A stretch of DNA of 64,000 nt, taken from positions 55,292 to 119,291 of the forward strand of contig MFHE01000010.1 of NCBI GenBank assembly GCA_001778495.1, read 5' to 3'. Below, in pieces: positions 22,523 to 38,268 of this stretch. The notes beneath the pieces were generated by a model. The model ran no database searches. It was not told the origin of the DNA and was given only the letters and a program-made list of their open reading frames with translations. The position numbers and the translations under genes are program-made. The first letter of the stretch is position 1. Every line of letters starts with the position of its first letter. Source of the DNA: Candidatus Giovannonibacteria bacterium RIFCSPHIGHO2_01_FULL_45_24 (GTDB lineage Bacteria; Patescibacteriota; Minisyncoccia; UBA11713; 2-01-FULL-45-33).

Positions 22523-24382
22523 TTATTTTAACCACTTTTCGCGCCAAAGCTGAAGCGCGATTAAATTCCATAATTCAATTCTGCGATCAACTTTTCCTTT
22601 TTGGTGCTCATTCCACAGTTTATCAATTTCCCTGCCGTTAAACCACATGCTTGTTTTAAGAGCGGAAATTTTTTCGGCTCCAAAACTATACAATTCATTT
22701 TTAAGCCACAAACCAAGCGGCATAGCGAAACCCTGTTTTTTTCTTTGGGCTATGCGTGGAGGGAAATATTTTGAAGCAACGCAGCGCAAAAGATATTTAG
22801 TTGTAAGGCCTCTGAGATGAAAATCTGTGGGCAACTTCAGAGCGTATTCTACCAAATTATGATTCAAAAGCGGAGAGCGCACCTCTAAAGAATTGGCCAT
22901 GCTGGCGCGGTCAATTTTGGCCAAAACCTGATCACCCAAATAAAACTTTCTGTAAAAAGCGATTATGCGCGCCCAGTCATTCAAGTACCCGCTGCGCGGC
23001 AGAGATTCATCAATCAGCTCCGTTACAGGATTCCCGGATAAGGCCGTGTGATGGATATCAGGAGAAAGAATCGCCGCAAGAGTGTCGGTGTGGTTATTAG
23101 CAAGCCATTGCTGATGCCTTAAAACCGCGTCCGATTCAGCAACTAAAAAAAACCTGCGAAGTTTAAAATCCAGCGGCATATACTTGTCCGATGCCGGTAT
23201 AAAGTCGGCTGCCGCCGCATACGCCATCCGCAATACCGGCATAAAAAACTTAAACTTCTGCCACAGCCTTTCAGCGATAAATGTCTGGTAACCCATGAAT
23301 ATTTCATCTCCGCCGTCCCCGCCGACCGCGACTTTTATTTTCGACCCGGCAAAGCAGGATAAAATAAAGGTTGGTATTATTGATGTGTCCGCCAAAGGCT
23401 CGTCAGAAATATCGGCAACTCGCGGGAGAAAGCCCAATACCTCTTCGGAGCCGATAACTTTTTCATTGTGGCGAGTCGCAAGAATGCCAGCGACTTCGCG
23501 CGCGTAAGAAGACTCGTCGAACGATTTTTCTTTGAATCCAATAGAAAAAGTTTCCAGTTCGGGATTTATTTGTTTCGCAAAACAGGCAACTAAACTGGAA
23601 TCTAGCCCGCCGGAAAGGAAAACGCCTAGCGGGACGTCGGCAACCATTGTTTTTTTAACACTGGCGGCAATTCTGCTTTCCAGTTCCTCTCCGGCCTTTT
23701 CCAAACTCAACTCAGAAAATTTTTTATTAAAATCCGGCTGCCAATATGTTTTTGCCGCGATTCTGCCGTCGTTCAACATCAATAACGTTCCGGCTTCCAG
23801 CTTTAGAATGTTTTTCAAAATAGATTTCGGCGCCGGCACTTGCCCGAAGGACAAATAAAGATATAAAGACTCTGGGTCAATTTCACGCCGGATTACTGGA
23901 ACCTCTAAGAGGCCTTTTAGTTCCGAAGCGAAAGCAAATAAATTTTTATCATGAAAATAGTATAAAGGTTTTTCTCCCATTCGGTCGCGCGCCAAAATCA
24001 ACGTTTTTGTTCTCCCGTCCCAAATTCCGATAGCGAACATTCCTTCCAGTTTGCCGAACACATCCAGCCCCCATTTTAAATAACCGCTTAAAATAACCTC
24101 GGTATCGCTTTTGGTTCCGAACCCGTATCCAAGTTCAAGCGTCTTTTTTAATTCCTGAAAATTATAAATCTCGCCGTTAAAAACCACGGCCACTTTGCCG
24201 TCCGGAGAAACCATGGGTTGGCGCCCGCCTTCAATATCAATAATTGAAAGGCGGCGATGCCCAAGCCAAATATTGTTATCTTGAAAAAAATTTTCGTCAT
24301 CGGGCCCGCGATGACGAAGCGCGGCAGTCATTGTTCTGATAGTTCTTTCGTCACCCCCGATTAAACCGGCAATACCGCACAT
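22523..24382 (-). CDS. asnB: Asparagine synthetase (glutamine-hydrolysing) family amidotransferase
   Basis: MCGIAG N-terminal Cys nucleophile...HRGPDD...SGGLDSS PP-loop...618 aa. Confidence 0.8.
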   Translation of the reverse strand: MCGIAGLIGGDERTIRTMTAALRHRGPDDENFFQDNNIWLGHRRLSIIDIEGGRQPMVSPDGKVAVVFNGEIYNFQELKKTLELGYGFGTKSDTEVILSGYLKWGLDVFGKLEGMFAIGIWDGRTKTLILARDRMGEKPLYYFHDKNLFAFASELKGLLEVPVIRREIDPESLYLYLSFGQVPAPKSILKNILKLEAGTLLMLNDGRIAAKTYWQPDFNKKFSELSLEKAGEELESRIAASVKKTMVADVPLGVFLSGGLDSSLVACFAKQINPELETFSIGFKEKSFDESSYAREVAGILATRHNEKVIGSEEVLGFLPRVADISDEPLADTSIIPTFILSCFAGSKIKVAVGGDGGDEIFMGYQTFIAERLWQKFKFFMPVLRMAYAAAADFIPASDKYMPLDFKLRRFFLVAESDAVLRHQQWLANNHTDTLAAILSPDIHHTALSGNPVTELIDESLPRSGYLNDWARIIAFYRKFYLGDQVLAKIDRASMANSLEVRSPLLNHNLVEYALKLPTDFHLRGLTTKYLLRCVASKYFPPRIAQRKKQGFAMPLGLWLKNELYSFGAEKISALKTSMWFNGREIDKLWNEHQKGKVDRRIELWNLIALQLWREKWLK

Positions 24383-24386: not shown

Positions 24387-25331
24387 TTATTGATTCACTA
24401 TTTTTTCCTTAATTAAAAAGTCCGTGTTTTTCTGCTCATCGCTTCTTTGACGCACAAAAATTTCGGCGAGCAATCCCATCAGTATAAATTGAACTCCAAT
24501 AATAGAGAAAATGGCTACAATTATCGGCAATGGAGTTGAAATAAAACTTTTATCGCCAAAATATTTGAAGTACACCATTCCCAAAAAAGAAATAAACGCC
24601 AGAAAAAAGCTGGCGAAGCCAATTCCTCCGAAAAAGTGAATTGGCCTTTCAGAATAACGATGGAAAAAGTTTAAAGCCAAAACATCAAGCAGAACTTTGA
24701 ATATTCGCATCATGCCGTATTTCGATTCGCCGAATTTCCGCGGCGAGTGTCGGACTTCCATCTCGGCCAATCGCGCCCCTAAAATATGAGCGTAAGCGGC
24801 AACAAGTCGGTGCTCTTCTCCTTTCAGTTTTATATGATCTAGCACTCCGCGTCGATACACCCTAAGAGTGCAGCCAAAATCATTCAATTTTGCCCCGGAC
24901 ACATAGGCAATCAATCTGTTAGCCAAGAGTGACGGAATTTTTCGCAAAAGCATCTGATTATTCCAACGGCTCTTGCGCCAGCCAGAAACGACGTCATGCC
25001 CATCCATTAACTTGGAAATCATATCCGGTATGTCTTCTGGGTAGTTTTCTAAATCGGCGTCAATTGTTACTATGACGTCTCCTTTGGCACTTTTTATCCC
25101 AGCGGCCAAAGCGGCGCTCTGCCCTGAATTTTTTCTTAACCTTAGCACCGTAACCGGCTGAAGATGTTTCATTTTCTCAAAAGTGCCGTCTGTTGAGTCG
25201 TCGTCAACAAAAATTATTTCATATTCCGATCCAATATTTTTTAAAACCATAACCAAACGATCATGGAGTTCATTGACAGTGTCTTGTTCGTTAAAAAGCG
25301 GCACGACAACAGATATAAGTTTGGGCTTCAT
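24387..25331 (-). CDS. GT2 polyprenyl-phosphate glycosyltransferase (ArnC/GtrB/Dpm1-like) with two C-terminal TM helices
   Basis: ISVVVPLFNEQDTV...IIFVDDDSTDGT...VTIDADLENYPEDIP, plus C-terminal hydrophobic helices, as in ArnC/GtrB. Confidence 0.75.
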   Translation of the reverse strand: MKPKLISVVVPLFNEQDTVNELHDRLVMVLKNIGSEYEIIFVDDDSTDGTFEKMKHLQPVTVLRLRKNSGQSAALAAGIKSAKGDVIVTIDADLENYPEDIPDMISKLMDGHDVVSGWRKSRWNNQMLLRKIPSLLANRLIAYVSGAKLNDFGCTLRVYRRGVLDHIKLKGEEHRLVAAYAHILGARLAEMEVRHSPRKFGESKYGMMRIFKVLLDVLALNFFHRYSERPIHFFGGIGFASFFLAFISFLGMVYFKYFGDKSFISTPLPIIVAIFSIIGVQFILMGLLAEIFVRQRSDEQKNTDFLIKEKIVNQ

Positions 25332-25345
25332 ATTAAAAAAGTACA

Positions 25346-27166
25346 CTATTTACTAAACGCATACAAATAAATATTGTTTGACGCGGCAACCTCTCTTAAA
25401 TTTTCAGAAAGGGGCGATAAATCCCATTCCGGATTTTTGTTTTTGTCCCAAACGATGTAATTGACCTCGCCCTTCTTCAAAATGCCCGCAATGCCTTCCG
25501 GACTGGCTACTTTTTGATATTCTCGGAAAAGCAAAGCAGACATTTCGGCCCTGCTTTTAATCACCGCCGGGTCGCCCTTAGCCAAACGAAAACCATATTC
25601 TTCGTAATCAAAACCGGAGTTAAAACCAGCCACAAAAAAGTAAATAAGCGGGTAAAAACTAGTCCCCCATTCGCCCCCGACTCCGTATCCGGCATCCACA
25701 TCGCGAAGCCGGCCCAAAAAATTGTCTCTCGCGTCCTTATCCAAATACATATACACGTATAGCGAGTCGGTAATTCTCTCCATTGGCGTGTTATAAACTA
25801 AAGCCGTAGCATGGCCCCAAAATAAATCATGATGCGTGTACACCGGAAATAACATTGCGTAGGGTAGGGATGACGCGAGAACAACTCCCGGTTCGGCGTC
25901 CGATTTCAATGCGTCAATAATCGGGCGGTAGTTCTGCCTGTATTCTTTGGCCTCCCGCGTAATCAGCGTCACCTGATACTGCCGCGAAGCCGCATTAAAA
26001 TAAGCGGCAATAATCAGCGCCGCCAAAAAAATGGTTCCGTATTTTCGCAACATTAATTTCCCGCGCTCCGCGCCACATACAAGCGCCCATCCGAGGTAAG
26101 CCCCGACGACGATAGAAGTTGGTATTGTAAAATACCAAAAATAGTGCATTAGTTGCGGGACTCGTCCGGTAATTACCTGCTGGTTCAATGCTATCCAATT
26201 TGCGAGAACAACAGACAAAAGCAGCGGAGCGTTCTTGCCCCATTTATTCCGGTACGCAAAAATAATGGACAAAATCAAAACCAAAAATAAAATTTTGCTG
26301 AACGGCGCCGGGGCATGATTCAAAGTAGTCCCATAATACAAAATCTGCTTGCCGATTTCGGAATACTGAAATGAAAATGTTTTAAAAAGAGTGTAAGCGC
26401 CAACGGCAAGCCCGATGGCTGAAACCCAAAAAACTTTTTTCGCTGATTCCCAATCGCGCAGACAAAGATAAATCAAAAACAAGCTCCCTGTCAGCGCCGA
26501 GGCGAAAGTCCATGTGTAGGGGTAAACGTAAAACAGCGCTCCGAATGCAATGCCGGACCAAAGAACATGTTTTCTCTCCGATGATTTCAAACTTCTTGCA
26601 AGCAAATTAATGTAAATAAAAAGCGCAAGAAGCCCGTAAACTGGCATTATTGGCCGGGAAAATATGTTGGGGTCCGGATTGGTTGCAGTAATCGGCACAT
26701 GATAAAGCTTCACTAAACTGTAGCCGCCTATGGTAAATAGCGCTATCGCCGCGGACAGCAACTTATGCGCGGAGAGGCGCAGTATGAAAAAGTAAATAGA
26801 GAAAATCAAAAGAACAACGCCCAAAAAAGCGTAAAGAGTGTATACAGGAACAATATAATCTACCGCTGCGCGAGAAAGCCCCAGCAGTTTAACCGGCGCG
26901 AGAAGAAGATATTCTATATAAACCTGGTGCGGGTCGGACGAATCGTTTTTGCCGATTTTAAGAAAAATATTGCCCAAAGAGTGGCCTTCCAGAATTTCCC
27001 TGCCTTTGGCGATATAGTGGAAGTCGTCCGACCACTCGCCAATATTTATGCCCTTATACGCATCGCCGGCCATAAACGGGAAAAGCAGGGCCGGCGATAT
27101 CACCAAAAGCGCCAAACCGACGGCGGAGCTCAATATAAATTTATGTTCGGTAAAAAAATTAGACAT
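25346..27166 (-). CDS. Polytopic membrane protein, GT-C-like glycosyltransferase candidate (family A, member 2)
   Basis: About 60% identical to the adjacent 27171..28907. GEWSDDFHYIAKGREILEGHSLGN first-loop acidic motif. C-terminal ...YIVWDKNKNPEWDLSPL. Confidence 0.45.
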   Translation of the reverse strand: MSNFFTEHKFILSSAVGLALLVISPALLFPFMAGDAYKGINIGEWSDDFHYIAKGREILEGHSLGNIFLKIGKNDSSDPHQVYIEYLLLAPVKLLGLSRAAVDYIVPVYTLYAFLGVVLLIFSIYFFILRLSAHKLLSAAIALFTIGGYSLVKLYHVPITATNPDPNIFSRPIMPVYGLLALFIYINLLARSLKSSERKHVLWSGIAFGALFYVYPYTWTFASALTGSLFLIYLCLRDWESAKKVFWVSAIGLAVGAYTLFKTFSFQYSEIGKQILYYGTTLNHAPAPFSKILFLVLILSIIFAYRNKWGKNAPLLLSVVLANWIALNQQVITGRVPQLMHYFWYFTIPTSIVVGAYLGWALVCGAERGKLMLRKYGTIFLAALIIAAYFNAASRQYQVTLITREAKEYRQNYRPIIDALKSDAEPGVVLASSLPYAMLFPVYTHHDLFWGHATALVYNTPMERITDSLYVYMYLDKDARDNFLGRLRDVDAGYGVGGEWGTSFYPLIYFFVAGFNSGFDYEEYGFRLAKGDPAVIKSRAEMSALLFREYQKVASPEGIAGILKKGEVNYIVWDKNKNPEWDLSPLSENLREVAASNNIYLYAFSK

Positions 27167-27170
27167 GTAT

Positions 27171-28907
27171 TTATTTCAACGCATACAAATAAATATTGTT
27201 TGACGCGGCAATTTCTTGAAGTTTGTCGGCAAGCGGGGAGAGGTCCCACTCCGGATTGGTATTCTTGTCCCAGACAATGTAATTAACGTCAGCTTTCTTT
27301 AAAATATTAATGATTCCTTCGGGGTCGTCAACTATCTTTTTGTATTCGCCGGAAAGCAAATCTATGGTTTTCTCTCTGCTTAAAGCGGCATAGATTGATG
27401 AGTAGTGGCGCCCATATGCTTTTTTAATCCCGCCGGCGTCTATCTTATAAAGCGCGCCGGCAAAGTCGCCTCTGGCCTCCTTATCCAAATACGCGTACAC
27501 ATAAAGCGCGTCTTTCATTCTTTCTGCAGGGGTAGCGAAATTGAACGCGTGCATGGCCCAAAATAAATCATGGTCGGTATAGACTGAAAAAAATCTTCCA
27601 TAAAAAAGATCGGAACTTAAAATGACCCCGGGCGCGGTATCGCGGTTTAATGCGTCAATAATCGGGCGGTAGTTTTGCGCGTATTCTTTGGCATCCCAAA
27701 TCACAAGCATTCTAGCGTATTGCCGGCTGGCAGTATTTAAAAAAGCGATGACGATTACAATGCCGAGCAAAGCGCTTCCGTATTTTCGCAATATTAATTT
27801 CCCGCGCTCCGCGCCCCACACAAGCGCCCACGAAACATAAGACCCCACCACAATGGAAGTAGGAATGGTAAAGTACCAAAAGTAATGGTCAACGCCTTGC
27901 GGATCGCGCCCGGTAATTACCTGCTGATTCAGAGCTATCCAGCTGGCTAGAATAATCGCCAAAAGAATCGGGTAATCTTTTTTGCCGCGGTTTCTGAAAG
28001 CGTAAATAATTGCCATAATCAAAATCAAAAAAGAGAGCTTGCTGAAGGGCGCGGGGGCGTGAGAAATAAACGTTGTAAAGCCGGCGATTTGTTTGCCGAT
28101 TTCCGAAGACATAAGCAACGCTAATAAAACAAGGGCGTAAGACCCGATGGCAAGCCCGATGGCTGAAACCCAAAAAACTTTTTTCGCTGATTCCCAATCG
28201 CGCAGACAAATATAAATCAAAAACAAGCTCCCTGTCAGCGCGGCGGCAAACGTCCATGTAAAAGGATAGACGTAAAACAACGCGCCGAAAGAAATTCCCG
28301 CCCAAAAGACGCGCCTCCATCCCGATTCACGCAAACTTTTTGCCAGTAAATTTATATAAATAAAAAGCGCAAGAAGCCCGTAAACGGGCATTATTGGTCG
28401 GGAAAATATGTTGAAATTATAGGCGACGGCGGTAACTGGAAGGTGGTAAAGCTTTACTAACTCATAGCCGCCCACTGTAAATAAAGCGGCGGCGGCTGAC
28501 AGCAATTTATTGTCGGACAAATGCAGAATAAAAAAATAAATAAATAAAACCAACAAAGCAACTCCCAAAAAAGTATAAAAGCCGTAAAGCACCACGATAT
28601 GATTTTTCGCGACGCCGGAAAGCCCCAATAGTTTTACCGGCGCCAGCAATAGGTAGTCTATATAAGTCTGGTGCGGGTCGGACGAATCGTTTTTGCCGAT
28701 TTTCAAAAAAGTATTTCCCAAAGAATGGCCTTCCAGAATTTCCCTTCCTCTGGCGATGTATGCCGCGTCGTCGTCCCATTCGCCAAGATTGATGCCATTA
28801 TACGCATCGCCGGCCATAAACGGGAACATCCACGAAGGCAAGAGGATTAAAAACGCAAGCAAAATCGCGCAAACAAAAATAAATTTATGCTCTGTAAAAA
28901 ATTTCAT
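27171..28907 (-). CDS. Polytopic membrane protein, GT-C-like glycosyltransferase candidate (family A, member 3; tandem paralog)
   Basis: GEWDDDAAYIARGREILEGHSLGN. C-terminal NYIVWDKNTNPEWDLSPL. A 93-nt near-identical tract is shared with member 2. Confidence 0.45.
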   Translation of the reverse strand: MKFFTEHKFIFVCAILLAFLILLPSWMFPFMAGDAYNGINLGEWDDDAAYIARGREILEGHSLGNTFLKIGKNDSSDPHQTYIDYLLLAPVKLLGLSGVAKNHIVVLYGFYTFLGVALLVLFIYFFILHLSDNKLLSAAAALFTVGGYELVKLYHLPVTAVAYNFNIFSRPIMPVYGLLALFIYINLLAKSLRESGWRRVFWAGISFGALFYVYPFTWTFAAALTGSLFLIYICLRDWESAKKVFWVSAIGLAIGSYALVLLALLMSSEIGKQIAGFTTFISHAPAPFSKLSFLILIMAIIYAFRNRGKKDYPILLAIILASWIALNQQVITGRDPQGVDHYFWYFTIPTSIVVGSYVSWALVWGAERGKLILRKYGSALLGIVIVIAFLNTASRQYARMLVIWDAKEYAQNYRPIIDALNRDTAPGVILSSDLFYGRFFSVYTDHDLFWAMHAFNFATPAERMKDALYVYAYLDKEARGDFAGALYKIDAGGIKKAYGRHYSSIYAALSREKTIDLLSGEYKKIVDDPEGIINILKKADVNYIVWDKNTNPEWDLSPLADKLQEIAASNNIYLYALK

Positions 28908-29635
28908 TTGTAAAACCCTCTTAATTGGTTAATTTTTATTTGCATAAGTTCTTTCAAAGAAATAACAATGTCACGGGCGGCTCTTACTTTTGAATCATCA
29001 TCATGCGACCATTCTACCGGCATCTGGCGGATAGGTATGCGTTTTAATTTTGCGACATATAGAAGCTCCGTGTCAAACGCCCATCTGTTTATCCGCGCAA
29101 TAGGGAAAATCTCCGCGGCCGCCTCGCGGGAAAAACATTTAAACCCGCAGGTAAAATCGGCTACCTCGCGAACGAAAACGCGGGACAGCGCGCTGAATCC
29201 GGCGCCGAGAAATTCGCGCAGCCAATGCTCGCGCTTGTTTATGCGCGAATCCGTCATCCGGCGGCTGCCGATAACTATTTGATCGCCGTCCGAAACGAAA
29301 GATTTAAAATGCTGGAACTCGCTTAAGGGAACCGCCAAATCAATGTCAAAAAAAATTATCCAGCGCCCGCTGGCCCCGAGGGTGCCTTGTCTTACCGCAT
29401 AACCCTTCCCGCGATTTTTGCCGTATTTTATGATTTTAAAATCATGCTTTCCCTGATAACTTTCCAGAACTTTTTCCGTGTCATCAGTGGACCCGTCGTT
29501 AACAAAAATCACCTCCACCGCATCTCCGCAGCTATTAAAAAAATTGAAAATTTGGTCTATACTTCTCGGTATGCGCTTCGCTTCATTATACACCGGCACT
29601 ATGATGGAAAAATCGGTTTTTGGCATAACAATCAA
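28904..29635 (-). CDS. GT2 Dpm1-like polyprenyl-phosphate sugar synthase
   Basis: FSIIVPVYNEAKRI...VIFVNDGSTDDT...IIFFDIDLAVP...VIGSR. Confidence 0.7.
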   Translation of the reverse strand: MIVMPKTDFSIIVPVYNEAKRIPRSIDQIFNFFNSCGDAVEVIFVNDGSTDDTEKVLESYQGKHDFKIIKYGKNRGKGYAVRQGTLGASGRWIIFFDIDLAVPLSEFQHFKSFVSDGDQIVIGSRRMTDSRINKREHWLREFLGAGFSALSRVFVREVADFTCGFKCFSREAAAEIFPIARINRWAFDTELLYVAKLKRIPIRQMPVEWSHDDDSKVRAARDIVISLKELMQIKINQLRGFYK

Positions 29636-29649
29636 AATAAAATTATAGC

Positions 29650-30447
29650 ATGGAAAGAGCCCAATATATAGAGCTTTATAACACTGAAAAAGACCATTGG
29701 TGGTTCCGCGGCCGCCGCAGGATTATCTCCGAATGCTTGCGATTATTCTGCCCTCAAAAAGTTGAAAGAGCCCTGGACATCGGCTGCGGCACGGGTTTTA
29801 ACGCCGTCCTCCTTGGCAATTTCTCAAAAAACGTTTTTGGGCTTGATTTTTCTGACGTTGCCGCTGATCTCGCAAAAAAGCTAAACCCGGACTTTACGTT
29901 AATTAAAGGCGAGTTTCCCGAAATCAAACTGGATGAACAATATAACGTCATCACTCTGCTGGACGTTTTGGAGCACATTGAAGACGACGTCGCGGCGCTC
30001 AAACGGATAGAAGAACTGCTCGCGCCCGGCGGATTGGCGCTTATAACCGTGCCCGCATTTGATTTTTTATGGACCGAGCACGATAAACTGCTTCATCATA
30101 AACGCCGATACGCAAAACCGGGCCTGATGAGCTTAATACGCTCCAGAACAAATCTGACCATAAAAAAAATAAGTTATTTTAACGCGTTTATGTTCCTGCC
30201 GATACTTGTTTTCAGATATTTAAGAAGGGCGTTTAATTTGGGCGAGGGTGAGTCTGACTTCTTTATGCTGCCTAAACCGCTGAATTACGCTCTTGAGAAA
30301 ATTTTTTCTCTGGAGGCGAAGATTCTTCGCCTGGCGAACTTCCCTTTCGGCGTTTCAATAATCTGCGTGCTCCAAAAACCGGCGCGAAGCTCACCAATAA
30401 GTGTAAAACAGAATCTGCAAAGTAATAATCTGAAAAAACAACAATGA
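29650..30447 (+). CDS. Class-I SAM-dependent methyltransferase
   Basis: HWWFRGRR...ALDIGCGTGFNAVLL...GLDFSD...YNVITLLDVLEHIEDD...LAPGGLALITVP. Confidence 0.65.
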   Translation: MERAQYIELYNTEKDHWWFRGRRRIISECLRLFCPQKVERALDIGCGTGFNAVLLGNFSKNVFGLDFSDVAADLAKKLNPDFTLIKGEFPEIKLDEQYNVITLLDVLEHIEDDVAALKRIEELLAPGGLALITVPAFDFLWTEHDKLLHHKRRYAKPGLMSLIRSRTNLTIKKISYFNAFMFLPILVFRYLRRAFNLGEGESDFFMLPKPLNYALEKIFSLEAKILRLANFPFGVSIICVLQKPARSSPISVKQNLQSNNLKKQQ

Positions 30448-31830
30448 CAAAAGCGCGTTAAACCGCAAGGGCTCCCAATCTTTTACTATTTTCATCAGCG
30501 GCAAAATGAAAAGCGGGGTCAAAAAGAGCCATATTCTCTCAACCTCGCCCTGGAAAATACCCATGAGCAAAAAAAGCCCTACCATGATAAATCCGAGCGA
30601 TGCGGCCAAATTCTCGCGCCGCCAAAATTCCTTAATCCGCCCGACCAGCAAAAAAACGTTCGGGAGACCTAGATAGACGGCAAATGCAGATAAATTCATA
30701 AAAAAGTAAACAAAATATATCAAGAGCGATTCAAAGTTGCTTTTGATTTCCGCATTTTGCGCGGCGCGCGAAACCCAAAAATTTTCCCAAATTGAATAAT
30801 CGTAAACCAAATAAAGGGCCGCAAAAAAAAGCGCGAGGCCGGCAACAGCCGCGGCGGTTCTGAAAATCAAGCGCTTGGCCTCACCGCTTTTTCCGTAAAC
30901 CATAAAAAGCAGAATCAAAAAGAGCGGGGCAGCGAGCAAAAACAAATAATTTAAAAATAGCGCGGCGGCGGCGGCCACCCCGCCCAAAAAAGATAAAACC
31001 GCGCTTCTCATCCAGCCGGCATAGATTAAAAATATGGCGATCCAAACAAAAAACAAAAAAACCGCGTCCATTGAAGTCGCGCTCATCATCGCAAAACTTG
31101 GGAAAAAGACAAAAAGCTCAAGTCCCCTTCTTGTTTCCCTCTCGGTGGCAAAATTCTTTAAAAAATAGTAAAGTGGGAAAACGGCAAGCCCGCCGAGCAT
31201 AACCGTAAGCGCCGCCATACCGCCGAAACCCGCGTGCAAGTATTTCTGGAAAAAATAAAGAATAAGTGTATACCCCGGCGGATGTATGCGGGTGTGTATT
31301 GACAAGGACTGGCTTAAATCAATGAAGTTCTTCAGAAAATCAGATGTGTTTCTTATCAAATAAAGATTCCCGGTGTACTCAAAATGAGTGCGGGTAAACG
31401 GCTCATAAACGCTAAAAAAACCTTCGCGCACGGCCGCCACGCCGATGCTGAAAAATACAAAAAAAACGTAGAGCGCGAAGAGGAATTTAAAAACAGCAAC
31501 TCGCTCCATCCTCTCCCGAAAACGCAAAAATAGCATGAAAAGGAGCGTAGTGCCGGCCAGCCACAGCCACCCAAGCGCCTTGGGCGAAGGGATGGCGTAA
31601 AAAACCAGCCGATCGGCGATGTAATTATAAGGATACATATAAAAAATTACGAGCTTTAGGAACGCAAGCGCAAAAAGCGAGATCGCGGAAATGTAAAAAA
31701 GTTTTTTAGAAAATTGGTCGTTCCTAAAATAGCCGAAGTAAAAAAGAGCAAAAATAACAGCAAATAAAAAAGCAACAATGCCCCCCCAAAAAGCAACCGC
31801 AAGCTTAGCGCCGGAGATTTCTATCATCAT
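30391..31830 (-). CDS. GT-C-type membrane glycosyltransferase (ArnT/PMT_2-like)
   Basis: Polytopic. IHPPGYTLILYFFQKYLHAGFGGMAALTVMLGGLAVFPLYYFL matches the GT-C HPPL...fG pattern. Confidence 0.5.
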   Translation of the reverse strand: MMIEISGAKLAVAFWGGIVAFLFAVIFALFYFGYFRNDQFSKKLFYISAISLFALAFLKLVIFYMYPYNYIADRLVFYAIPSPKALGWLWLAGTTLLFMLFLRFRERMERVAVFKFLFALYVFFVFFSIGVAAVREGFFSVYEPFTRTHFEYTGNLYLIRNTSDFLKNFIDLSQSLSIHTRIHPPGYTLILYFFQKYLHAGFGGMAALTVMLGGLAVFPLYYFLKNFATERETRRGLELFVFFPSFAMMSATSMDAVFLFFVWIAIFLIYAGWMRSAVLSFLGGVAAAAALFLNYLFLLAAPLFLILLFMVYGKSGEAKRLIFRTAAAVAGLALFFAALYLVYDYSIWENFWVSRAAQNAEIKSNFESLLIYFVYFFMNLSAFAVYLGLPNVFLLVGRIKEFWRRENLAASLGFIMVGLFLLMGIFQGEVERIWLFLTPLFILPLMKIVKDWEPLRFNALLSLLFFQIITLQILFYTYW

Positions 31831-32521
31831 TCCAGTTTATAACGATGCCGCCCACATCGGCAAGAGCGTGGAGGCGCTGATGAATTTTATCCAGAGCGAA
31901 AATTTAAACGCTGAAGTTTTGATAATAAATGACGGAGGCAAAGACGCCACGGCAAAAATAGTTGAAGAGAAATTAAAAAAATATCCGGCGATCCGTTTTA
32001 TAAATAGGGCAAAAAATATAGGCAAAGGCGCGAGTGTGCGCGAAGGCATCGCCACCTCCTCCGGTAACGTCATTATTTTTACCGACGCAGATTTGCCGTA
32101 CGGCACAAAGCATTTTAAAGAAATGATTGAGTTTCTGCGTTCATGGAAAGCTGATTTGGTTATCGCAAACCGCCACCTGTGGTCAACCTGGCAGGTTGAC
32201 CAATTTGGCATTAGCACTGTAAGACGTCTTACTCATTGGAGCTTCGGGTTTTTAGTCCGAAATCTTTTGCATTTGAGATTTTCAGACACCCAAGCGGGAC
32301 TTAAAGGAATGAGTCATAAAGCGGCGGGGGTGATTCTCCCGAAATTAAATATCAACGGCTTTGCTTTTGATTTGGAGCTTTTGGTTGAAGCCCAAAAAGC
32401 CGGCCTAAAAATCCAGGAGGTTCCGGTGGTTTTGGAAAACGCCGGCCAGTCAAATATCAAAATAGCCAGAGATTCTCTCCGGATGCTTATAGATATAATT
32501 AAAATCTGGCTTAGCTACTGA
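31778..32521 (+). CDS. GT2 Dpm1-like polyprenyl-phosphate sugar synthase
   Basis: ISIIIPVYNDAAHI...VLIINDGGKDAT...IIFTDADLPYG...VIANRH. Confidence 0.7.
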   Translation: MPPQKATASLAPEISIIIPVYNDAAHIGKSVEALMNFIQSENLNAEVLIINDGGKDATAKIVEEKLKKYPAIRFINRAKNIGKGASVREGIATSSGNVIIFTDADLPYGTKHFKEMIEFLRSWKADLVIANRHLWSTWQVDQFGISTVRRLTHWSFGFLVRNLLHLRFSDTQAGLKGMSHKAAGVILPKLNINGFAFDLELLVEAQKAGLKIQEVPVVLENAGQSNIKIARDSLRMLIDIIKIWLSY

Positions 32522-33909
32522 CTAAGTTTTCTATATAAAGAGTAGTGGCCGATTTGTTTTTGTATTTCGTAATCAGACTCTAGAGTATTGACGAATATAT
32601 CAACTGGCGCGCTTTGAACAGCAACATAATTATAATTTTCTATATCGGTTTTTCCAAAAGACAAAACAGGGTTTATTCGCAGATACTGATAAACTTGCCG
32701 GCTTTCAATCAAAAAAGCTGCGCTTGAGGCGTTGATAATAAAAATTTTATCATCTAGTGTGGTTGTTTCCATGACATATTTGGAAAAAATTTCAGTTTCA
32801 TCGGAATAATATAAACTGGAGTTCCGCTGGCTTATGGTGTAGGAGGTCTGGAAAATAAAAAGCAGGGCGATCAGAGAGACGGCGGCTTTTCTGCCAATCA
32901 AGCGGAGTGCGGCGGCCGGAAAGACCAGAAACAAAACCATATGCGCGGGGAAAAAGTAGCGGTACCAGCCCGGGGTTTTGAGGTAAAAAGCCAGGACCAG
33001 CAAAATAAAAGCAGCTAAAATAATTTCAACTTTTTTTACATCTTCGCCTTTTTTGTTTTTCCAAAAAATGAACGCGGCGGACGCCAAAAAAAGCAATAAG
33101 AAATGAATTGGCGTGGACTCCGTGAAAAATCTCAAAAAATTCGCGGAAATCAGGTCGCCGAAATTAACAGAAGCGTAGGAATTTGAATAATAGTTAAACG
33201 CTGGAAAAAGTCCGGCTAAAGAAAAACTCGGCAAAATCGTGTATAGCCAAAAAATCAGCGGAAACAGGGCTCCGGAGGCAATGAGCAAGAACCGTTTCAG
33301 CAAAATTTTAAAATCGTTTTTATAGTAGACGATTTCGCCAACCAAAACCGCCGCAGGAACAATCAAAAAAACCGGCTTGGCGGCGGCGGAGAGGCCGGTG
33401 AAAAGTCCGGCTAAAAACAATTTGTTAAAATTAAATTCCGGCGCGAGCAGCAGCAATGCGCATAAAAAGTAAAACAACCCCGGAATTTCCCCCAAAACGG
33501 CTTTACCATTGCCGTAAAAAGGCGTAAAAGATACAATCAGTGCGACGCTCATAAGAGCCGCAGTTTTTCCGTAAAGCATTTTTACTAAAAAATAGGCGGC
33601 GAGCGAGAATAAAAACAAAAACAAAACCATAGGCGCTCTGGCGGCAACCAAATTAAAGCCGAATAATTTCATTGATAAAGCCGCCGGCAGCAAAACAGGA
33701 TAATTGCTGGTAATCAAAAATTGGCGCGTCTCAACAAATTCGCCGGGCGCAATCTCCAAACTAAAAACTCCGTGATTTATTAATCCTTTGGCAATGCCTA
33801 AATTAATCCCCTCGTCAAACCAAGTGGCAGGGCTGTAAGGCAAGCGCCATACGCCAAACAAAATCAAAATGACAAATAGAAAAGTTAAAATCAGGTTATC
33901 TCGCGGCAT
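32515..33909 (-). CDS. GT-C-type membrane glycosyltransferase
   Basis: WFDEGINLGIAKGLINHGVF (first-loop DE motif)...ARAPMVLFLFLFSLAAYFLVKMLYG. More than 10 TM helices. Confidence 0.5.
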   Translation of the reverse strand: MPRDNLILTFLFVILILFGVWRLPYSPATWFDEGINLGIAKGLINHGVFSLEIAPGEFVETRQFLITSNYPVLLPAALSMKLFGFNLVAARAPMVLFLFLFSLAAYFLVKMLYGKTAALMSVALIVSFTPFYGNGKAVLGEIPGLFYFLCALLLLAPEFNFNKLFLAGLFTGLSAAAKPVFLIVPAAVLVGEIVYYKNDFKILLKRFLLIASGALFPLIFWLYTILPSFSLAGLFPAFNYYSNSYASVNFGDLISANFLRFFTESTPIHFLLLFLASAAFIFWKNKKGEDVKKVEIILAAFILLVLAFYLKTPGWYRYFFPAHMVLFLVFPAAALRLIGRKAAVSLIALLFIFQTSYTISQRNSSLYYSDETEIFSKYVMETTTLDDKIFIINASSAAFLIESRQVYQYLRINPVLSFGKTDIENYNYVAVQSAPVDIFVNTLESDYEIQKQIGHYSLYRKLSQ

Positions 33910-35134
33910 ATTTTTTATAAATAAAATTAAATCCGGCGCCGGCGAATAAAAGAATAAAAGGCGTCAAAGGCAGCATATACCTGCTCATGTCCGCGCCCAA
34001 CCCTAAAGCTCCTACCGAAGCGGCATTTACCAAAAAAAAGAGAAAGATCAAATAAAACCAAATCCTCGCTTTTTTTTCAAAAAAAAGCAAGAGCGCAAAC
34101 GCGTAAAGCAGCGCCCAGAATGCCCAAACCGCCGCGGCGGCGGCAAAAATCCACTTTCCAAAATTCTCGTCAAAAAGCTGCGGCAATTTCGGTTTTAAAA
34201 CATAATTAGTGAGATAAAAGTACGGATTTTTAGAAAGCGACTCCAGAACCACAGAGGCGTAAAATTTGGCGTAGGCCCATGGCCTTTCTTTAAAAATTTC
34301 AAAAAAATGCCTCTGGTAAAATGGGATATTTGCCGGATCGTAAGGCGGAAGTTGCGGGCGCGGCAGTATAAACCCTTCTCTATCCGCGAATATCGACGTA
34401 ACAACGCCGTAAAGGTTATACCACGAAGCGGAAGATAATTGCCACGTATCAAAAACAATTTTATTGCGAAGCATCCATGGGAAAAGCACGGCCAAAAACA
34501 GCGTGGTGGACACAATAATTTTTTTCAAGCCGATCTGTCTCCAAAACATCATAATTAGAAATAGCGGGAAAAAGTATATGCCAACGGAGCGCGTAAGCGT
34601 TGCCAAACCAAAAAATAGAGTAAACTGGTAATAACGCCTTAAAACAAAATAATAAAAGGCCAGAATAAACAAAAAGGCAAACAAATAATCTGACATCAAA
34701 AGATTATTCCAATAAACAGACATTGGCTCAACACTCATAAAAACTGCCGCAAAAAAGCCCACATTCCGCGAATTAAAAATTAAAATGCCGATGCGGTAAA
34801 CTAAAACCGCCATGAACCCGGCCAAGACATTTTGCGCGAAAACAATTGCAAAAATCGGCAACTTAAACCACAAAAACGATGCCAAAAAAAGCGGATAGAG
34901 AGGCGTGCGATAGGCGTCGGGCACGTACGGCGGGGCCGCACTCATGCTGAAAATATGATTTTCGACTAGATTCTTCGCCAGAGGAAGATAAAAAGAAAAA
35001 GCGTCCGAGTAAGCCAGAAATCCCTGCGATCCAAATTTAACCTGCACAGAAACCGCGTACAAGAACCTGACCCCGAACGCCAGAAAAAAAATCCAAATCT
35101 CGGTTTTATGATTTTTGAGCCAGCTCAAAATCAA
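33896..35134 (-). CDS. GT-C-type membrane glycosyltransferase
   Basis: YVPDAYRTPLYPLFLASFLW...NVLAGFMAVLVYRIGILIF. Polytopic. Confidence 0.5.
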   Translation of the reverse strand: MILSWLKNHKTEIWIFFLAFGVRFLYAVSVQVKFGSQGFLAYSDAFSFYLPLAKNLVENHIFSMSAAPPYVPDAYRTPLYPLFLASFLWFKLPIFAIVFAQNVLAGFMAVLVYRIGILIFNSRNVGFFAAVFMSVEPMSVYWNNLLMSDYLFAFLFILAFYYFVLRRYYQFTLFFGLATLTRSVGIYFFPLFLIMMFWRQIGLKKIIVSTTLFLAVLFPWMLRNKIVFDTWQLSSASWYNLYGVVTSIFADREGFILPRPQLPPYDPANIPFYQRHFFEIFKERPWAYAKFYASVVLESLSKNPYFYLTNYVLKPKLPQLFDENFGKWIFAAAAAVWAFWALLYAFALLLFFEKKARIWFYLIFLFFLVNAASVGALGLGADMSRYMLPLTPFILLFAGAGFNFIYKKYAAR

Positions 35135-35835
35135 TCAAATAAATTAAATCTGATAATAGCCGAGATGGCGTAAAGGCCGTCACGCCAGCCGATTTTTTTC
35201 CCTTCGGCGTAAGTCCGGCCGCTGTAGGAAATACCAACCTCGTAAACGCGGAGTTCGGCCTTGGCGACTCTGGCGACGATTTCCGGTTCAATGCCGAACC
35301 TGCTGCTTTTGAGTTTCGGCAGGATTTTCAAGAGCGCCGTGCGCCTGAAAGCTTTATACCCCGTCTCCATATCGGTTAAATTGAGGTCCGTAAAAATATT
35401 GGAAAGCGTAGTCAGAATTTTATTGCCGACATAGTGCCAGAAAAATAAAACCCGGTGCGCCGAGGCACCCATAAAACGCGAGCCGAAAACCACGTCAGCC
35501 CGACCGTCCAAAAGCGGAGCCAGCAAAATTTTATATTCGTTGGGATCATATTCCAAATCTGCGTCTTGAACAATAATAAAGTCGCCGAGAGCTTCCTGAA
35601 ACCCGCGCCGGAGAGCCGCGCCCTTGCCTTTATTTTTATCCTGGTAAAGTATTCTGTATTTGCCTGTTTTTTCTAAATGTTTTAAAACTTCGCGCGTGCC
35701 ATCGCTTGAGCCGTCATCAACAACCACAATTTCTTTTTGCGATTCGCCGACATCAGCGCCCTCCGCGCGTTTCAAAATCTCCGCAATAGTATTTTTCTCG
35801 TTGTACGCTGGGACAATAATGGAAAGTTTAAACAT
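35131..35835 (-). CDS. GT2 Dpm1-like polyprenyl-phosphate sugar synthase
   Basis: LSIIVPAYNEKNTI...VVVDDGSSDGT...IIVQDADLEYDP...VFGSRF. Confidence 0.75.
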   Translation of the reverse strand: MFKLSIIVPAYNEKNTIAEILKRAEGADVGESQKEIVVVDDGSSDGTREVLKHLEKTGKYRILYQDKNKGKGAALRRGFQEALGDFIIVQDADLEYDPNEYKILLAPLLDGRADVVFGSRFMGASAHRVLFFWHYVGNKILTTLSNIFTDLNLTDMETGYKAFRRTALLKILPKLKSSRFGIEPEIVARVAKAELRVYEVGISYSGRTYAEGKKIGWRDGLYAISAIIRFNLFD

Positions 35836-35879
35836 GCTATGGATTATAACCTAAATTTTCTATATAGTTAAATGTAATT

Positions 35880-37499
35880 ATGAACTTGAGAACATGGCTT
35901 ATTTCTATTTTGGCTTTGGCGTTTCTGATAAGAATCGCTGGTGTAAGCTATGGGCTTCCTCTTTGGCTAGTTGATGATGAACCTCCTTTCGTATTGGCAG
36001 CGCTTAAAATGCTTGAACTAAAAACTCTGTTGCCGGCGCTCCATTTTGCTGATTTTAAGACCGTTCTTTACTATCCGCCGTATCTCGCCTATTTATATTT
36101 GCCGTTTTTTGCGGCACTTGCCGCGGTAAAATTTTTATTCTATAAAGGCGCGGCGAATCTTTTCGCGGCGTATTTATTGAGCGACCTCTCTGGATTTTTT
36201 ATAATCGCGCGAGTAATAAATATTCTCTTGGGCGTCGCATCGGTTTATTTAATTTATAAAATAGCAAAAAATATTTTCACAGACGAAACTCCAGCTCTGT
36301 TTACCGCCTTTTTTGTTTCAACCAGTTTAATCCATACCGCGCTATCCATGACTAGCAGGCACTGGCTTTCCGTTTTTTTCTTCTCCGCACTCACTCTTTT
36401 TTGGCTTTCTCATCAAAAAGTCTCCGACAAAAAGAGATATCTGCTAGCAGCTCTTAGCGCGGGCGTCGGCGTGGGTTTTGCGATAACAAATATCCTTTCG
36501 GCCCTACTTATTGTCTTTTGGTACCTACTTTACGAAAAAAAATCTATTTTAGGGTTGTTAAAAGAAAAATTTTTCTACGGTTTATGCGCCCTTTTTGCGG
36601 TGCTGGCCATGCTCCCCTACTTGCTTTACCCAGGAAGCCTGGGTTTCAGAGCGGATACAACAGAGAGTGCCGCAAAAACTGTCCGGGGGCTCATTTCAAG
36701 CCCATTTTACTTCGCAAAAACCATTGCCGCCTCGGAGTTTGTGTTAATCGCGTTCGCTACGGCGGGCCTGGCTTTCGCGTTTAAAAAATCGCGCGGCGTT
36801 TTCTGGGCTTTCGCCGCGTTCATCTGCGCCTACAGCGTGATTTTTTATCTAATTTTCCGTTTTGAGCCGCGATTTTTCATGGGAATACTGCCAATCTTCA
36901 TAATTCTCGCTGGGTATGGGTTTTATGAAACACAAAAAAAAATGTCTTCCGCCGCCTTATCAAAATCGCTTATGATCCTGCTACTGCTCCCTCTTATTTT
37001 CTCGTTGCGGCTCGGCTGGTTGGCCTTAAAAAATGACTCGCGCACCATGGCGCGCTCTTGGGCTGAAGCAAACCTACCCGCCGGGGCAAAAATAATAACG
37101 CTGGCTCGGCTCACACGTTTTTCCACAAACAAAAGCGCCGTTGATGAGCAGAGGAAAATAGATTCATCTTCTTTAAGAAAAGTTGACTTAGCGGACGCGG
37201 AGCTGGGGAGGCCGAATTTTCACGCCCTGAACTTATTTGACGCCAACAATCAAAATTTCTACGAAAACTTGGAAAACTATGTTAAAGAAAACAACTACGA
37301 ATACGTGATTATTCAGCCGAACTATCGCAATGGCCAATATTTTAAAAAGGCGATGGGGAACGGAAAGCTTATAAAAACTTTCGGCTCCGGCGAATCGGAT
37401 ATGTCCGTGGCTGAAAGTCAATTTTTAAAGAATCCCTTGGCCTTGTTTCAAATAAAAGAATTTGGGCCAAAAATAGAAATATATAAATTAAACCGGTGA
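35880..37499 (+). CDS. GT-C-type membrane glycosyltransferase (ArnT/PMT-like)
   Basis: LPLWLVDDEPPFVLAA...RVINILLGVASVYLIYKIAKNIF. Large C-terminal soluble domain. Confidence 0.6.
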   Translation: MNLRTWLISILALAFLIRIAGVSYGLPLWLVDDEPPFVLAALKMLELKTLLPALHFADFKTVLYYPPYLAYLYLPFFAALAAVKFLFYKGAANLFAAYLLSDLSGFFIIARVINILLGVASVYLIYKIAKNIFTDETPALFTAFFVSTSLIHTALSMTSRHWLSVFFFSALTLFWLSHQKVSDKKRYLLAALSAGVGVGFAITNILSALLIVFWYLLYEKKSILGLLKEKFFYGLCALFAVLAMLPYLLYPGSLGFRADTTESAAKTVRGLISSPFYFAKTIAASEFVLIAFATAGLAFAFKKSRGVFWAFAAFICAYSVIFYLIFRFEPRFFMGILPIFIILAGYGFYETQKKMSSAALSKSLMILLLLPLIFSLRLGWLALKNDSRTMARSWAEANLPAGAKIITLARLTRFSTNKSAVDEQRKIDSSSLRKVDLADAELGRPNFHALNLFDANNQNFYENLENYVKENNYEYVIIQPNYRNGQYFKKAMGNGKLIKTFGSGESDMSVAESQFLKNPLALFQIKEFGPKIEIYKLNR

Positions 37500-38233
37500 A
37501 AATAATAACGATTATACCAACTTATAACGAAAGCGAATTAATAGGCCAGCTTTTGGACGCGCTTTTTGAGAAAACATTTAAAGATATCCAGAACCACCAA
37601 ATGGGAGTGTTAGTCGTGGATGGGAATTCCCCCGACGGAACCGCGGAAATCGTAAAAACAAAATCGGCGAAATATCCGAATCTCAATTTAATAGTTGAAA
37701 AAGAAAAGCGCGGCATCGGCGCCGCGTATATCGCGGGCATAAAATACGCTATAGAAAAATTAAGAGCTGACGCGGTGATAGAGTTTGACGGCGACTGGCA
37801 GCACAATCCGGAGGATATAAAAAGATTGGTTGCCGAATTTGATAAAGGATACGATTACGTAATCGGCTCGCGCTATGTCGCGGGCGGCTCCATTCCGAAA
37901 GAATGGGCGCTTTGGAGAAAATCTTTAAGCCGACTTGGCGGTTTAACCGCCAAATTTGTTTTAGGGCTTCCGGTAAACGACGCGACCTCCGGCTTCAAGC
38001 TTTCCCGCGTAAAAAATTTCGCGGAACGCCTGCCGCTTGATGAAAGCAGGATTTTATCAAAATATTACGCCTATAAAATCCAGTTTCTCTACGAAATGCT
38101 GCGCCTGGGCGCAAAAACCAAAGAAATCTCGATTAAATTTCTGGAGCGCCGAGGCGGCTCCTCAAAAAGCACCCTCCGCGATATTTTTGACTCGCTTTAC
38201 GTGGTGCTCGCGCTCCGCTTTAGGAAAAAATAA
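37496..38233 (+). CDS. GT2 Dpm1-like polyprenyl-phosphate sugar synthase
   Basis: ITIIPTYNESELI...VLVVDGNSPDGT...VIEFDGDWQHNPEDI...VIGSRY. Overlaps the upstream GT-C gene by 4 nt. Confidence 0.75.
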   Translation: MKIITIIPTYNESELIGQLLDALFEKTFKDIQNHQMGVLVVDGNSPDGTAEIVKTKSAKYPNLNLIVEKEKRGIGAAYIAGIKYAIEKLRADAVIEFDGDWQHNPEDIKRLVAEFDKGYDYVIGSRYVAGGSIPKEWALWRKSLSRLGGLTAKFVLGLPVNDATSGFKLSRVKNFAERLPLDESRILSKYYAYKIQFLYEMLRLGAKTKEISIKFLERRGGSSKSTLRDIFDSLYVVLALRFRKK

Positions 38234-38268
38234 AAATAGCCGGGAGTGAGTTGTTCACTCAACCGGCT
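38225..38268. terminator. Hairpin terminator between convergent GT2 (+) and GT4 (-) genes; stem overlaps both stop regions
   Basis: AGCCGG-GAGUG-aguuguu-CACUC-aa-CCGGCU nested hairpin. On the minus strand it is followed by AUUUUUAUUUU. Confidence 0.45.

Follow-up and report, generated by a model that had tools for sequence, protein, structure and literature searches.

We analysed a 64,000-nt stretch of DNA (the window) from the genome of a Candidatus Giovannonibacteria bacterium, an ultra-small groundwater member of the candidate phyla radiation (CPR/Patescibacteria), and scanned its open reading frames (ORFs) of at least 100 aa against Pfam and NCBIfam. Our subject is a cluster of genes for family 2 glycosyltransferases (GT2), which resemble polyprenyl-phosphate sugar synthases, and for polytopic membrane proteins, which resemble glycosyltransferases of the GT-C fold. 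ORFs are present at every coordinate that a first-pass annotation of this cluster had given. Between positions 24387 and 38233 (13.8 kb) lie five GT2 genes, six genes for polytopic proteins and one methyltransferase gene, such that 11 of 12 genes belong to two classes. The seven GT2 genes that the annotation had placed within about 14 kb all exist, but only five lie inside this interval; the GT2 genes alone extend over 15943-38233, and the full set of seven GT2s (G1-G7) and seven polytopic proteins (M1-M7) over 11125-38233. Eight or more polytopic GT-C-like proteins had been claimed, and the count over 11125-38233 is seven. The assignment of genes to classes held, since PF00535 was found in the GT2 proteins encoded at 24387, 28904, 31778, 35131, 37496 and 15943, and in the C-terminal half of that encoded at 16670. 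The genes are listed below by position and strand, with M123 denoting the family to which M1-M3 belong.

11125-12861 (-): M1, M123 family; full-length identity of 41% with M2 and 39% with M3; fold assigned by way of the M2 model
15943-16746 (-): G1, Dpm1/ArnC-like GT2 (PF00535, 4e-16; top NCBIfam matches ArnC and PgfS; motifs DGD and REYGKSS)
16670-18436 (-): G2, N-terminal dTDP-glucose 4,6-dehydratase (RmlB; TIGR01181, 399 bits, cutoff 365) and C-terminal Dpm1/ArnC-like GT2 (PF00535, residues 375-511)
24387-25346 (-): G3, ArnC/GtrB-type GT2 (PDB ArnC 9hwj, E 1.6e-50, residues 8-313; GtrB 5eke, 6e-28)
25346-27166 (-): M2, M123 family; about 11 transmembrane (TM) helices and an extracytoplasmic C-terminal alpha/beta domain
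27171-28907 (-): M3, tandem paralog of M2 (64% identical); ATGA overlap with G4
28904-29635 (-): G4, short soluble Dpm1/GtrB-like GT2 (PF00535, 3e-29; PDB dolichol-phosphate-mannose synthase (DPMS) 5mlz, GtrB 5eke and ArnC)
29650-30447 (+): S-adenosylmethionine (SAM) methyltransferase within the array, beside G4-M3-M2 (Methyltransf_23, 1.8e-18)
30391-31830 (-): M4, divergent PMT_2-type GT-C
31778-32521 (+): G5, short Dpm1-like GT2 (PF00535, 3e-24; 32% identical to G4)
32515-33909 (-): M5, PMT_2-type GT-C (PF13231, 29.3 bits, cutoff 26.1; FDE after TM1)
33896-35134 (-): M6, divergent PMT_2/GT39-type GT-C, judged from its homologs
35131-35835 (-): G6, short Dpm1/AglJ-like GT2 (PF00535, 3.5e-35; PDB DPMS 5mlz, 4.8e-20)
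35880-37499 (+): M7, PMT_2-type GT-C with a C-terminal extracytoplasmic domain (PF13231, 35.6 bits, cutoff 26.1; weak PF02366; DDE after TM1)
37496-38233 (+): G7, short Dol-P-Man-synthase-like GT2 (PDB 5mlz, 8.6e-22, residues 1-234)

A DxD motif stands at the expected position in all seven GT2s, and an R..G.SK-type motif is present in G1, G2, G3 and G7; in G7, the RRGGSSK region aligns opposite R..GESK of Dol-P-Man synthase. GT2s without Dpm1-like features, named beforehand as the finding that would count against the first-pass annotation, are not what the locus encodes: G3 matches ArnC over its full length and has two C-terminal TM helices (residues 242-260 and 275-293) typical of the ArnC/GtrB group, while the closest solved relative of G4, G6 and G7 is the P. 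furiosus Dol-P-Man synthase, followed by ArnC and then, for G4 and G6, by GtrB. In NCBIfam, the top match of G1, the GT2 domain of G2, G4 and G7 is ArnC or PgfS; ArnC is the top GT2 match of both G1 and G2, and PgfS is among the best matches of G1, G4, G5 and G7. G6 scored 121.7 bits against AglJ (TIGR04182), which is under the cutoff, and the top match of G5 was PgaC (63.4 bits) in a near tie with PgfS, AglJ and PpgS. Judged by sequence similarity, the closest named relatives of all seven GT2s in the PDB or NCBIfam are polyprenyl-phosphate sugar synthases, for G5 in a near tie with PgaC. Pairwise identity among the seven is 22-38%, with G1 and the GT2 domain of G2 sharing 38%; they would appear to be old paralogs rather than recent duplicates, presumably with different specificities.

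Each of M1-M7 has about 6-12 hydrophobic segments. M5 and M7 pass the PMT_2 threshold. M4 and M6 have no Pfam match of their own, and M4 has none in NCBIfam either; PF13231 or PF02366 is found in many of their homologs, which are named as GT39 or ArnT family proteins. By Pfam, none of the seven belonged to the YfhO or Gtr* type. Two of the polytopic proteins were modelled with AlphaFold2 (AF2), and both models have the GT-C fold, with no transporter and no protein of the Wzy/O-antigen-ligase type among the top 20 structural matches. The first-pass annotation had singled out classification as transporters or permeases as the result that would speak against it, and no polytopic protein was so classified. 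We conclude that all seven look like GT-C glycosyltransferases, not transporters. Sequence searches of the PDB were uninformative for these proteins: M7 alone gave nothing meaningful, and a profile of the M4 family gave no match. An alignment of the M123 and M4 family profiles with hhalign had a probability of 5.8%, with no detectable sequence relationship. For M2, we took helix boundaries from the AF2 model in place of hydropathy to define the loops. Assuming an N-in topology, lysine and arginine account for 11 of 56 residues in the predicted inside loops and 6 of 89 in the outside loops; this bias supports a modelled topology in which the N terminus is inside, and loop 1 and the C-terminal domain are outside.

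M1-M3 are paralogs (39-64% identity) with no match in Pfam or NCBIfam. When 42 aligned members of the M123 family were scanned, no Pfam family was found consistently, and none of the 42 passed the PF13231 threshold. An M123 profile likewise retrieved nothing meaningful from PDB sequences: the best match was an LptG fragment (E 0.012), and no solved oligosaccharyltransferase was matched. Conservation within the family is nonetheless pronounced, with conserved acidic residues in loop 1 (D47, E57, E60 and E85 in M2 numbering) and R171, NQQ328-330, H341 and Y342 invariant or nearly so. An M123 profile, searched against 1.84 billion representative proteins, yielded about 2,600 clusters (at 50% identity) with E ≤1e-3, 752 of them with E ≤1e-30. 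In species-representative genomes, relatives are titled Giovannoni-, Magasanik-, Falkow-, Peregrini-, Kaiser-, Portnoy-, Azam- and Nealsonbacteria, among others. The generic third-party annotation (TPA) metagenome-bin labels on a few more (for example 'uncultured Gammaproteobacteria') are probably not reliable, and M123 relatives were retrieved only from contigs that look like CPR/Patescibacteria.

Gene fusions bear directly on what these proteins work with. Seven members of the M123 family have an N-terminal GT2 domain (P0254, P0268, P0275, P0321, P0378, P0029 and P0066), and one has an N-terminal GtrA domain (P0358). Since GT2 and GtrA, the two other parts of three-component glycosylation systems, both occur fused to it, M123 very likely works with polyprenyl-phosphate sugars; the fusions are strong and independent evidence of this. 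One further member has an N-terminal SAM methyltransferase (P0287) of the same type as that encoded at 29650-30447. This fusion, together with the position of the latter gene beside M3-M2, suggests that methylation is functionally tied to the M123 transferases. On the strength of the modelled fold, M123 is a large, unannotated, predicted GT-C family and a candidate for a new CAZy or Pfam family.

Linkage at the locus itself is tight. All intergenic gaps over 9507-46241 are ≤84 bp, GC content is approximately 41-52% with no compositional break at the locus, no tRNA genes were found in the window, and the same locus was found on at least 12 contigs across ENA and NCBI assemblies. The report of several GT2/GT-C pairs with 4-nt overlaps stands in part: the overlap is clear for G4/M3 (ATGA) and M7/G7 (GTGA), but M2/G3 are likelier to be separated by a gap of about 14 nt. 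G3 probably starts at an ATG 15 nt downstream of the annotated start. G6/M6 may have a 4-nt overlap (TTGA), with the TTG start being uncertain.

We compared the locus with 76 related loci from other genomes, which together contain 96 M123 genes. A Dpm1-like GT2 gene is the immediate neighbour of 20 of the 96 and lies within two genes of 40; GT2 frequency is 13-14% at a distance of one or two genes from M123 and about 5% at distances of five or more. The densest of the 76 loci has four GT2s and four GT-Cs per ~21 kb, as compared to six and six here. Because its relatives reach four plus four, we regard this locus as the far end of a pattern that recurs, rather than as a cluster formed by chance. 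A triplet of M5-like, M123 and M6-like GT-C genes recurs in distant Patescibacteria (loci L034, L042 and L056), which suggests a conserved multi-GT-C module.

Two blocks of genes that lie between M1 and G3 would supply donors. The first surrounds G2, which was called as a single ORF on contigs of three independent assemblies, and includes, besides G1 and M1, the following genes.

12854-13927 (-): DegT aminotransferase (PF01041, 391 bits)
13950-14711 (-): SAM methyltransferase (Methyltransf_11/23)
14696-15529 (-): SAM methyltransferase (Methyltransf_11/23)
15526-15930 (-): FdtA-type ketoisomerase (PF05523, 123.5 bits)
18521-18940 (-): second FdtA-like cupin (PF05523, 9.4e-13)
18976-19662 (-): SAM methyltransferase (Methyltransf_11, 2.7e-21)

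The fusion itself implies, as read from its domains, that a sugar derived from a dTDP-6-deoxyhexose is loaded onto polyprenyl phosphate. Given that G2 is fused to a dTDP-glucose dehydratase and accompanied by two FdtA-type isomerases, a DegT aminotransferase and three methyltransferases, this sugar is probably a modified 3-amino-3,6-dideoxyhexose. By analogy with the Arn pathway, the module looks like one for loading a tailored 3-amino-3,6-dideoxyhexose onto polyprenyl phosphate. We considered the methyltransferase at 13950-14711 as a TylM1/DesVI-type sugar N,N-dimethyltransferase, which would make a mycaminose-like sugar, and dropped this assignment since its PDB matches are generic methyltransferases only. 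The dehydratase-GT2 fusion offers a compact handle for tracing which unusual sugars pass via polyprenyl phosphate.

The second block comprises four adjacent genes in one operon (19619-22519), followed by an amidotransferase gene.

19619-20224 (-): small membrane protein of the GtrA family, putative polyprenyl-phosphate-sugar flippase and the sole one in the window (PF04138, 48.3 bits, cutoff 26.1)
20228-21271 (-): extended SDR of the epimerase/dehydratase type, candidate lipid-pentose epimerase (PF01370, 1.4e-44; motifs TGGAGFLG and YGEAK)
21250-21663 (-): small HAD-IIIA phosphatase of 137 aa, candidate 5-phosphoribose phosphatase (PF13242; motif I DIDGT)
21653-22519 (-): UbiA-family polyprenyl-phosphate phosphoribosyltransferase of the DPPR-synthase type (NF008977, 243 bits, cutoff 234; NF008978, 210.3 bits, cutoff 207)
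22523-24382 (-): AsnB-type glutamine amidotransferase (PF00733, 285 bits; TIGR01536, 461 bits)

The first-pass annotation was correct in placing GtrA at 19619. The UbiA protein has the Asp-rich motif NDVVD, and the HAD protein scored 43.1 bits against TIGR01662, slightly below the cutoff of 44.6. Kelly et al. (2024) described a pathway consisting of PPPRS, a flippase, a GT-C and an optional SDR epimerase that converts Ribf to Xylf (PMC11127046). Since the gene set matches this logic, we take the UbiA, HAD, SDR and GtrA genes to be the donor-making part of a pentofuranose pathway; they likewise match the donor-making part of the mycobacterial synthesis of decaprenylphosphoryl ribose and arabinose (DPR/DPA; PMC11127046). 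No MATE-family protein was found among the scanned ORFs of the window, where GtrA is present instead, and a GtrA-type flippase has been proposed for M. tuberculosis in Rv3789 (PMC11127046). Nor does the locus encode an FAD-oxidase-type protein or DprE1 homolog, having a single extended SDR with GalE-like motifs; in this respect the SDR is nearer to C. youngae ORF13 than to the mycobacterial two-enzyme 2'-epimerisation by DprE1 and DprE2. By homology, then, the locus could make an eighth lipid-linked donor, a predicted pentofuranose.

We conclude, with a probability of roughly 0.78, that multiplexed glycosylation by extracytoplasmic GT-C enzymes using lipid-linked sugars is the core of a glycan island. 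Fold and family assignments, gene linkage and gene fusions are the observations that carry this conclusion, and the elaborate multi-sugar extracytoplasmic machinery envisaged at first pass is a reasonable description, supported by the GT2 and GT-C class assignments. From these observations we infer a course of donor chemistry, flipping, pairing of individual GT2s with GT-Cs, and transfer to an acceptor. Nucleotide sugars would first be tailored in the cytoplasm. At the cytoplasmic face, G1-G7 would each load one sugar from a nucleotide sugar onto polyprenyl phosphate, and the UbiA-type phosphoribosyltransferase, HAD phosphatase and SDR epimerase would together make polyprenyl-phosphate-pentofuranose from phosphoribosyl pyrophosphate (PRPP). 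The lipid-linked monosaccharides would then be flipped outward, with GtrA as the only candidate flippase encoded here. At the outer face, M1-M7 (four PMT_2-type and three M123 enzymes) would decorate an exported acceptor with single sugars; the likeliest acceptor is a glycopolymer or glycolipid with a core made by adjacent GT4 enzymes, and/or surface proteins. Since a block of GT4 genes adjoins, the core glycan or glycolipid would be built in the cytoplasm first, as in mycobacterial phosphatidylinositol mannoside (PIM), lipomannan (LM) and lipoarabinomannan (LAM) synthesis.

Several observations weigh against this model. All NCBIfam scores of the GT2s fall far short of the equivalog cutoffs, which leaves every one of them without an assignable donor sugar, and the single best NCBIfam match of G5, PgaC, is a processive synthase rather than a polyprenyl-phosphate sugar synthase, although the competing scores are nearly tied. 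G4-G7 have no TM segments, such that their association with the membrane is assumed. A crude analysis by Kyte-Doolittle hydropathy and positive-inside counting gave inconsistent TM counts and orientations for M4-M7. Co-variation of GT2/GT-C pairs, to which the first-pass annotation had looked for confirmation, did not emerge: subtyping of the GT2s over the 76 loci gave no fixed pairs, at identities (21-64%) that are too low for the purpose. One GtrA would have to serve up to eight donors, and the flippase activity of GtrA is itself unproven in the literature (PMC11127046). Lastly, the scanned ORFs of the window include no initiating phosphoglycosyltransferase, no Wzx/Wzy and no ABC exporter.

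The array forms the centre of an island for glycan biosynthesis, over 56 kb long, in this Candidatus Giovannonibacteria genome. The island reaches from 10 kb or more before the window start to position 46241. Six GT4 domains are encoded in it, as are a Capsule_synth protein, a C-methyltransferase, acyltransferases and, counting the one at 22523-24382, two AsnB amidotransferases. Directly after G7 comes a block of cytoplasmic Leloir-type genes, most of them joined by 4-nt overlaps; farther along is the gene for undecaprenyl-diphosphate synthase, UppS.

38259-46241 (-): cytoplasmic Leloir block as a whole (Pfam), with the next six entries as its members
38259-39413 (-): GT4 (Pfam)
39410-41194 (-): second AsnB amidotransferase (Pfam)
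41172-42002 (-): G8, a SunS-like, non-Dpm1 GT2 outside the count of seven (NCBIfam)
41999-42997 (-): GT4 (Pfam)
42994-44019 (-): GT4 (Pfam)
44016-46241 (-): double GT4 (Pfam)
60361-61038 (-): UppS (PF01255, 258.8 bits), 14 kb from the island

The two full-length AsnB-type enzymes (22523-24382 and 39410-41194) probably serve to amidate uronic or other sugar acids, not to make asparagine. UppS is the source of the polyprenyl carrier that all of the GT2 and GT-C enzymes need. Directly downstream of M1, at 9507-11123 (-), is a gene for an unusual fusion protein with partial UDP-glucose/GDP-mannose dehydrogenase domains at its N terminus and a SAM methyltransferase at its C terminus. At 322-1833 (+), a protein with a Capsule_synth (KpsC/KpsS-like) domain is encoded beside an FkbM methyltransferase; by analogy with group 2 capsules, it may hint at a lipid-anchored polymer primer. 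The 10 kb upstream of the window on the same contig encode a CMP-sugar synthetase (CTP_transf_3) and a HisH/HisF-like glutamine amidotransferase and cyclase, together with a hexapeptide acyltransferase, a sulfotransferase, two MocA oxidoreductases and two methyltransferases; this part may be a nonulosonic-acid or Kdo-type branch. Past 46.3 kb, the window encodes housekeeping proteins: SecD, DHFR, ThyA, GyrB, L11, NusG, PheS and UppS. Among them is a thymidylate cluster (49139-53982) of DHFR, a cytidylyltransferase-like protein, dCMP deaminase, a HIT protein, thymidylate synthase and a thymidylate-kinase-like protein, which is notable in a reduced CPR genome; its supply of dTMP would feed dTDP-sugar pathways. 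The PheS gene is flanked by genes for a Peptidase_C39-like cysteine protease, 58210-58731 (-), and an NlpC/P60 cell-wall hydrolase, 59852-60304 (-).

Of the other explanations, the one that fares best is that the locus serves mainly protein O-glycosylation, with M4-M7 and possibly M123 moving sugars from polyprenyl-phosphate donors onto Ser/Thr-rich regions of surface proteins, in the manner of actinobacterial Ppm1/Pmt and streptococcal PgfS/PgfM1 and GtrB/PgtC2. M7 matches PMT_2 and, weakly, PMT, and it is translationally coupled to the Dol-P-Man-synthase-like G7; PgfS is a good match for several of the GT2s. In streptococci, GT2/GT-C pairs act in just this way, glycosylating Ser/Thr-rich disordered regions of membrane proteins (PMC12041528). 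Moreover, directly beside the island, at 46262-47773 (-), is a gene for a protein with a signal peptide, two lamin-tail domains (LTD), a PKD domain, an S/T/P-rich linker (DPAPDSTPPAEESDATDASVSETQTSGS) and a C-terminal TM anchor; judging by these features, this surface protein is a possible acceptor for glycosylation. However, PMT_2 also spans ArnT-type lipid and glycan transferases, and membership of the family therefore does not specify a protein acceptor, while the many cytoplasmic GT4s of the island, its Capsule_synth protein and its CMP-sugar synthetase point to a polymer or oligosaccharide. We consider O-glycosylation a serious alternative or addition to the model of multiplexed glycan decoration, but doubtful as the main function.

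A second explanation is that M123 is oligosaccharyltransferase-like. Following the logic of Haloferax AglJ/AglB, an AglJ-like GT2 would start an oligosaccharide on polyprenyl monophosphate, GT4s would extend it, and M123 would transfer it en bloc. G6 is most similar to AglJ, and the scanned ORFs lack a phosphoglycosyltransferase despite the six GT4 domains; the initiating enzyme may, however, be encoded elsewhere in the genome, beyond the scanned window. The modelled GT-C fold is compatible with such a role for M123. Against this explanation, the W[WYF]DxG motif, including its WWDxG form, is absent from M1-M3, which have only a conserved VWDKN some 30 residues short of the C terminus and well away from the last TM helix, and fusions to GT2 and GtrA are expected of three-component systems that transfer single sugars. 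We therefore think this mechanism improbable, and give equally little credence to M123 being an STT3/AglB-like CPR lineage with archaeal-style en bloc transfer of polyprenyl-monophosphate oligosaccharides to surface proteins. If true, such a pathway would be a previously unrecognised form of bacterial protein glycosylation that shapes the surface of episymbiotic ultra-small bacteria. Least probable is a generic polysaccharide locus of ordinary cytoplasmic GT2s clustered with polymerases, ligases or permeases: PF00535 is very broad, PgaC and EpsD score near the Dpm1-type families for G4 in NCBIfam and PgaC is top for G5, but the closest solved structures of G3, G4, G6 and G7 are DPMS, ArnC and GtrB rather than processive synthases, GT2-M123 and GtrA-M123 fusions exist, and the GT-C fold of both modelled polytopic proteins largely refutes it.

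The cell surface is central to CPR biology because, to our knowledge, all cultivated CPR/Patescibacteria live attached to other microbes. Here, a member of a small-genome lineage spends over 56 kb of its genome on a surface-glycan island, with a design that would multiplex up to eight lipid-linked donors and seven extracytoplasmic GT-C transferases. What is new is this extent of multiplexing within a single compact island of a CPR bacterium with a reduced genome, the unannotated M123 family with its predicted GT-C fold, and the dehydratase-GT2 fusion. The M123 fusions to GT2, GtrA and methyltransferase domains provide a ready functional hypothesis for the family. A literature search on CPR bacteria with GT-C or polyprenyl-dependent glycosylation returned no paper on the locus or on the M123 family, and a 2024 study of a Saccharibacteria pilus called glycosylation processes in CPR 'unexplored' (PMC11623550).

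According to two published accounts, three-component systems include O-antigen glucosylation in Shigella and Salmonella, lipoteichoic acid (LTA) glycosylation by CsbB/GtcA/YfhO, and GacI/GacL-type side chains (PMC11127046, PMC8035078). As in the GtrA/GtrB/Gtr* systems, a GT2 synthase, GtrA and GT-Cs are genetically linked here, and GT2 and GT-C genes are translationally coupled. In those systems, a single GT2, GtrA and GT-C serve one side-chain sugar, whereas the respective numbers here are seven, one and seven, and three of the GT-Cs have no Pfam or NCBIfam model. The streptococcal Pgf (PgfS/PgfE/PgfM1/PgfM2) and GtrB/PgtC2 systems are similar in combining a GT2 with more than one GT-C per operon in cells without an outer membrane (PMC12041528); the streptococcal GT-Cs are of the YfhO type, as compared to PMT_2-type and M123 here, and the scale of seven plus seven is also different. 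The Citrobacter youngae O1/O2 pentofuranose system consists of PPPRS, a MATE protein and GT136, with or without an SDR epimerase (PMC11127046). Both loci have a UbiA-type phosphoribosyltransferase, a HAD protein and a GalE-like SDR (TGxxGxxG, YxxxK) beside GT-C genes. In C. youngae, however, the phosphatase is fused to the UbiA domain and the flippase is a MATE protein, whereas here the candidate phosphatase has its own gene and GtrA is the candidate flippase.

The ArnC/ArnT pathway resembles the locus in that G3 is a full-length homolog of ArnC, and in that the G2 module would couple tailoring by dehydratase, isomerase and aminotransferase to polyprenyl-phosphate loading, followed by a GT-C step. 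The sugar here would be derived from a dTDP-hexose rather than being UDP-Ara4FN, the dehydratase is fused to the GT2, and neither the ArnD deformylase nor the ArnE/F flippase is present. CPR bacteria are not known to have a lipopolysaccharide (LPS) outer membrane, so lipid A is not expected as the acceptor.

Mycobacteria make LM/LAM and arabinogalactan with the GT4 enzymes PimA/B, with Ppm1, Rv3806c (DPPR synthase), Rv3807c, DprE1/E2 and Rv3789, and with the GT-Cs PimE, Mpt, Emb and Aft. There, as proposed here, cytoplasmic GT4 steps are followed by many GT-C steps fed by polyprenyl-phosphate-linked hexoses and pentoses. The description of this locus as far more elaborate than typical is apt if O-antigen and LTA systems are the yardstick; the mycobacterial envelope, however, is made with a comparable number of GT-Cs. 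The GT-Cs differ, being of the PMT_2 type and M123 rather than Emb or GT87, and the carrier here is presumably of the undecaprenyl type because UppS is present. Moreover, components that are dispersed in mycobacteria are gathered here in a compact island of a very small CPR genome. The kind of mechanism, namely three-component and mycobacterial-type extracytoplasmic glycosylation, is known; its multiplexing is unusual.

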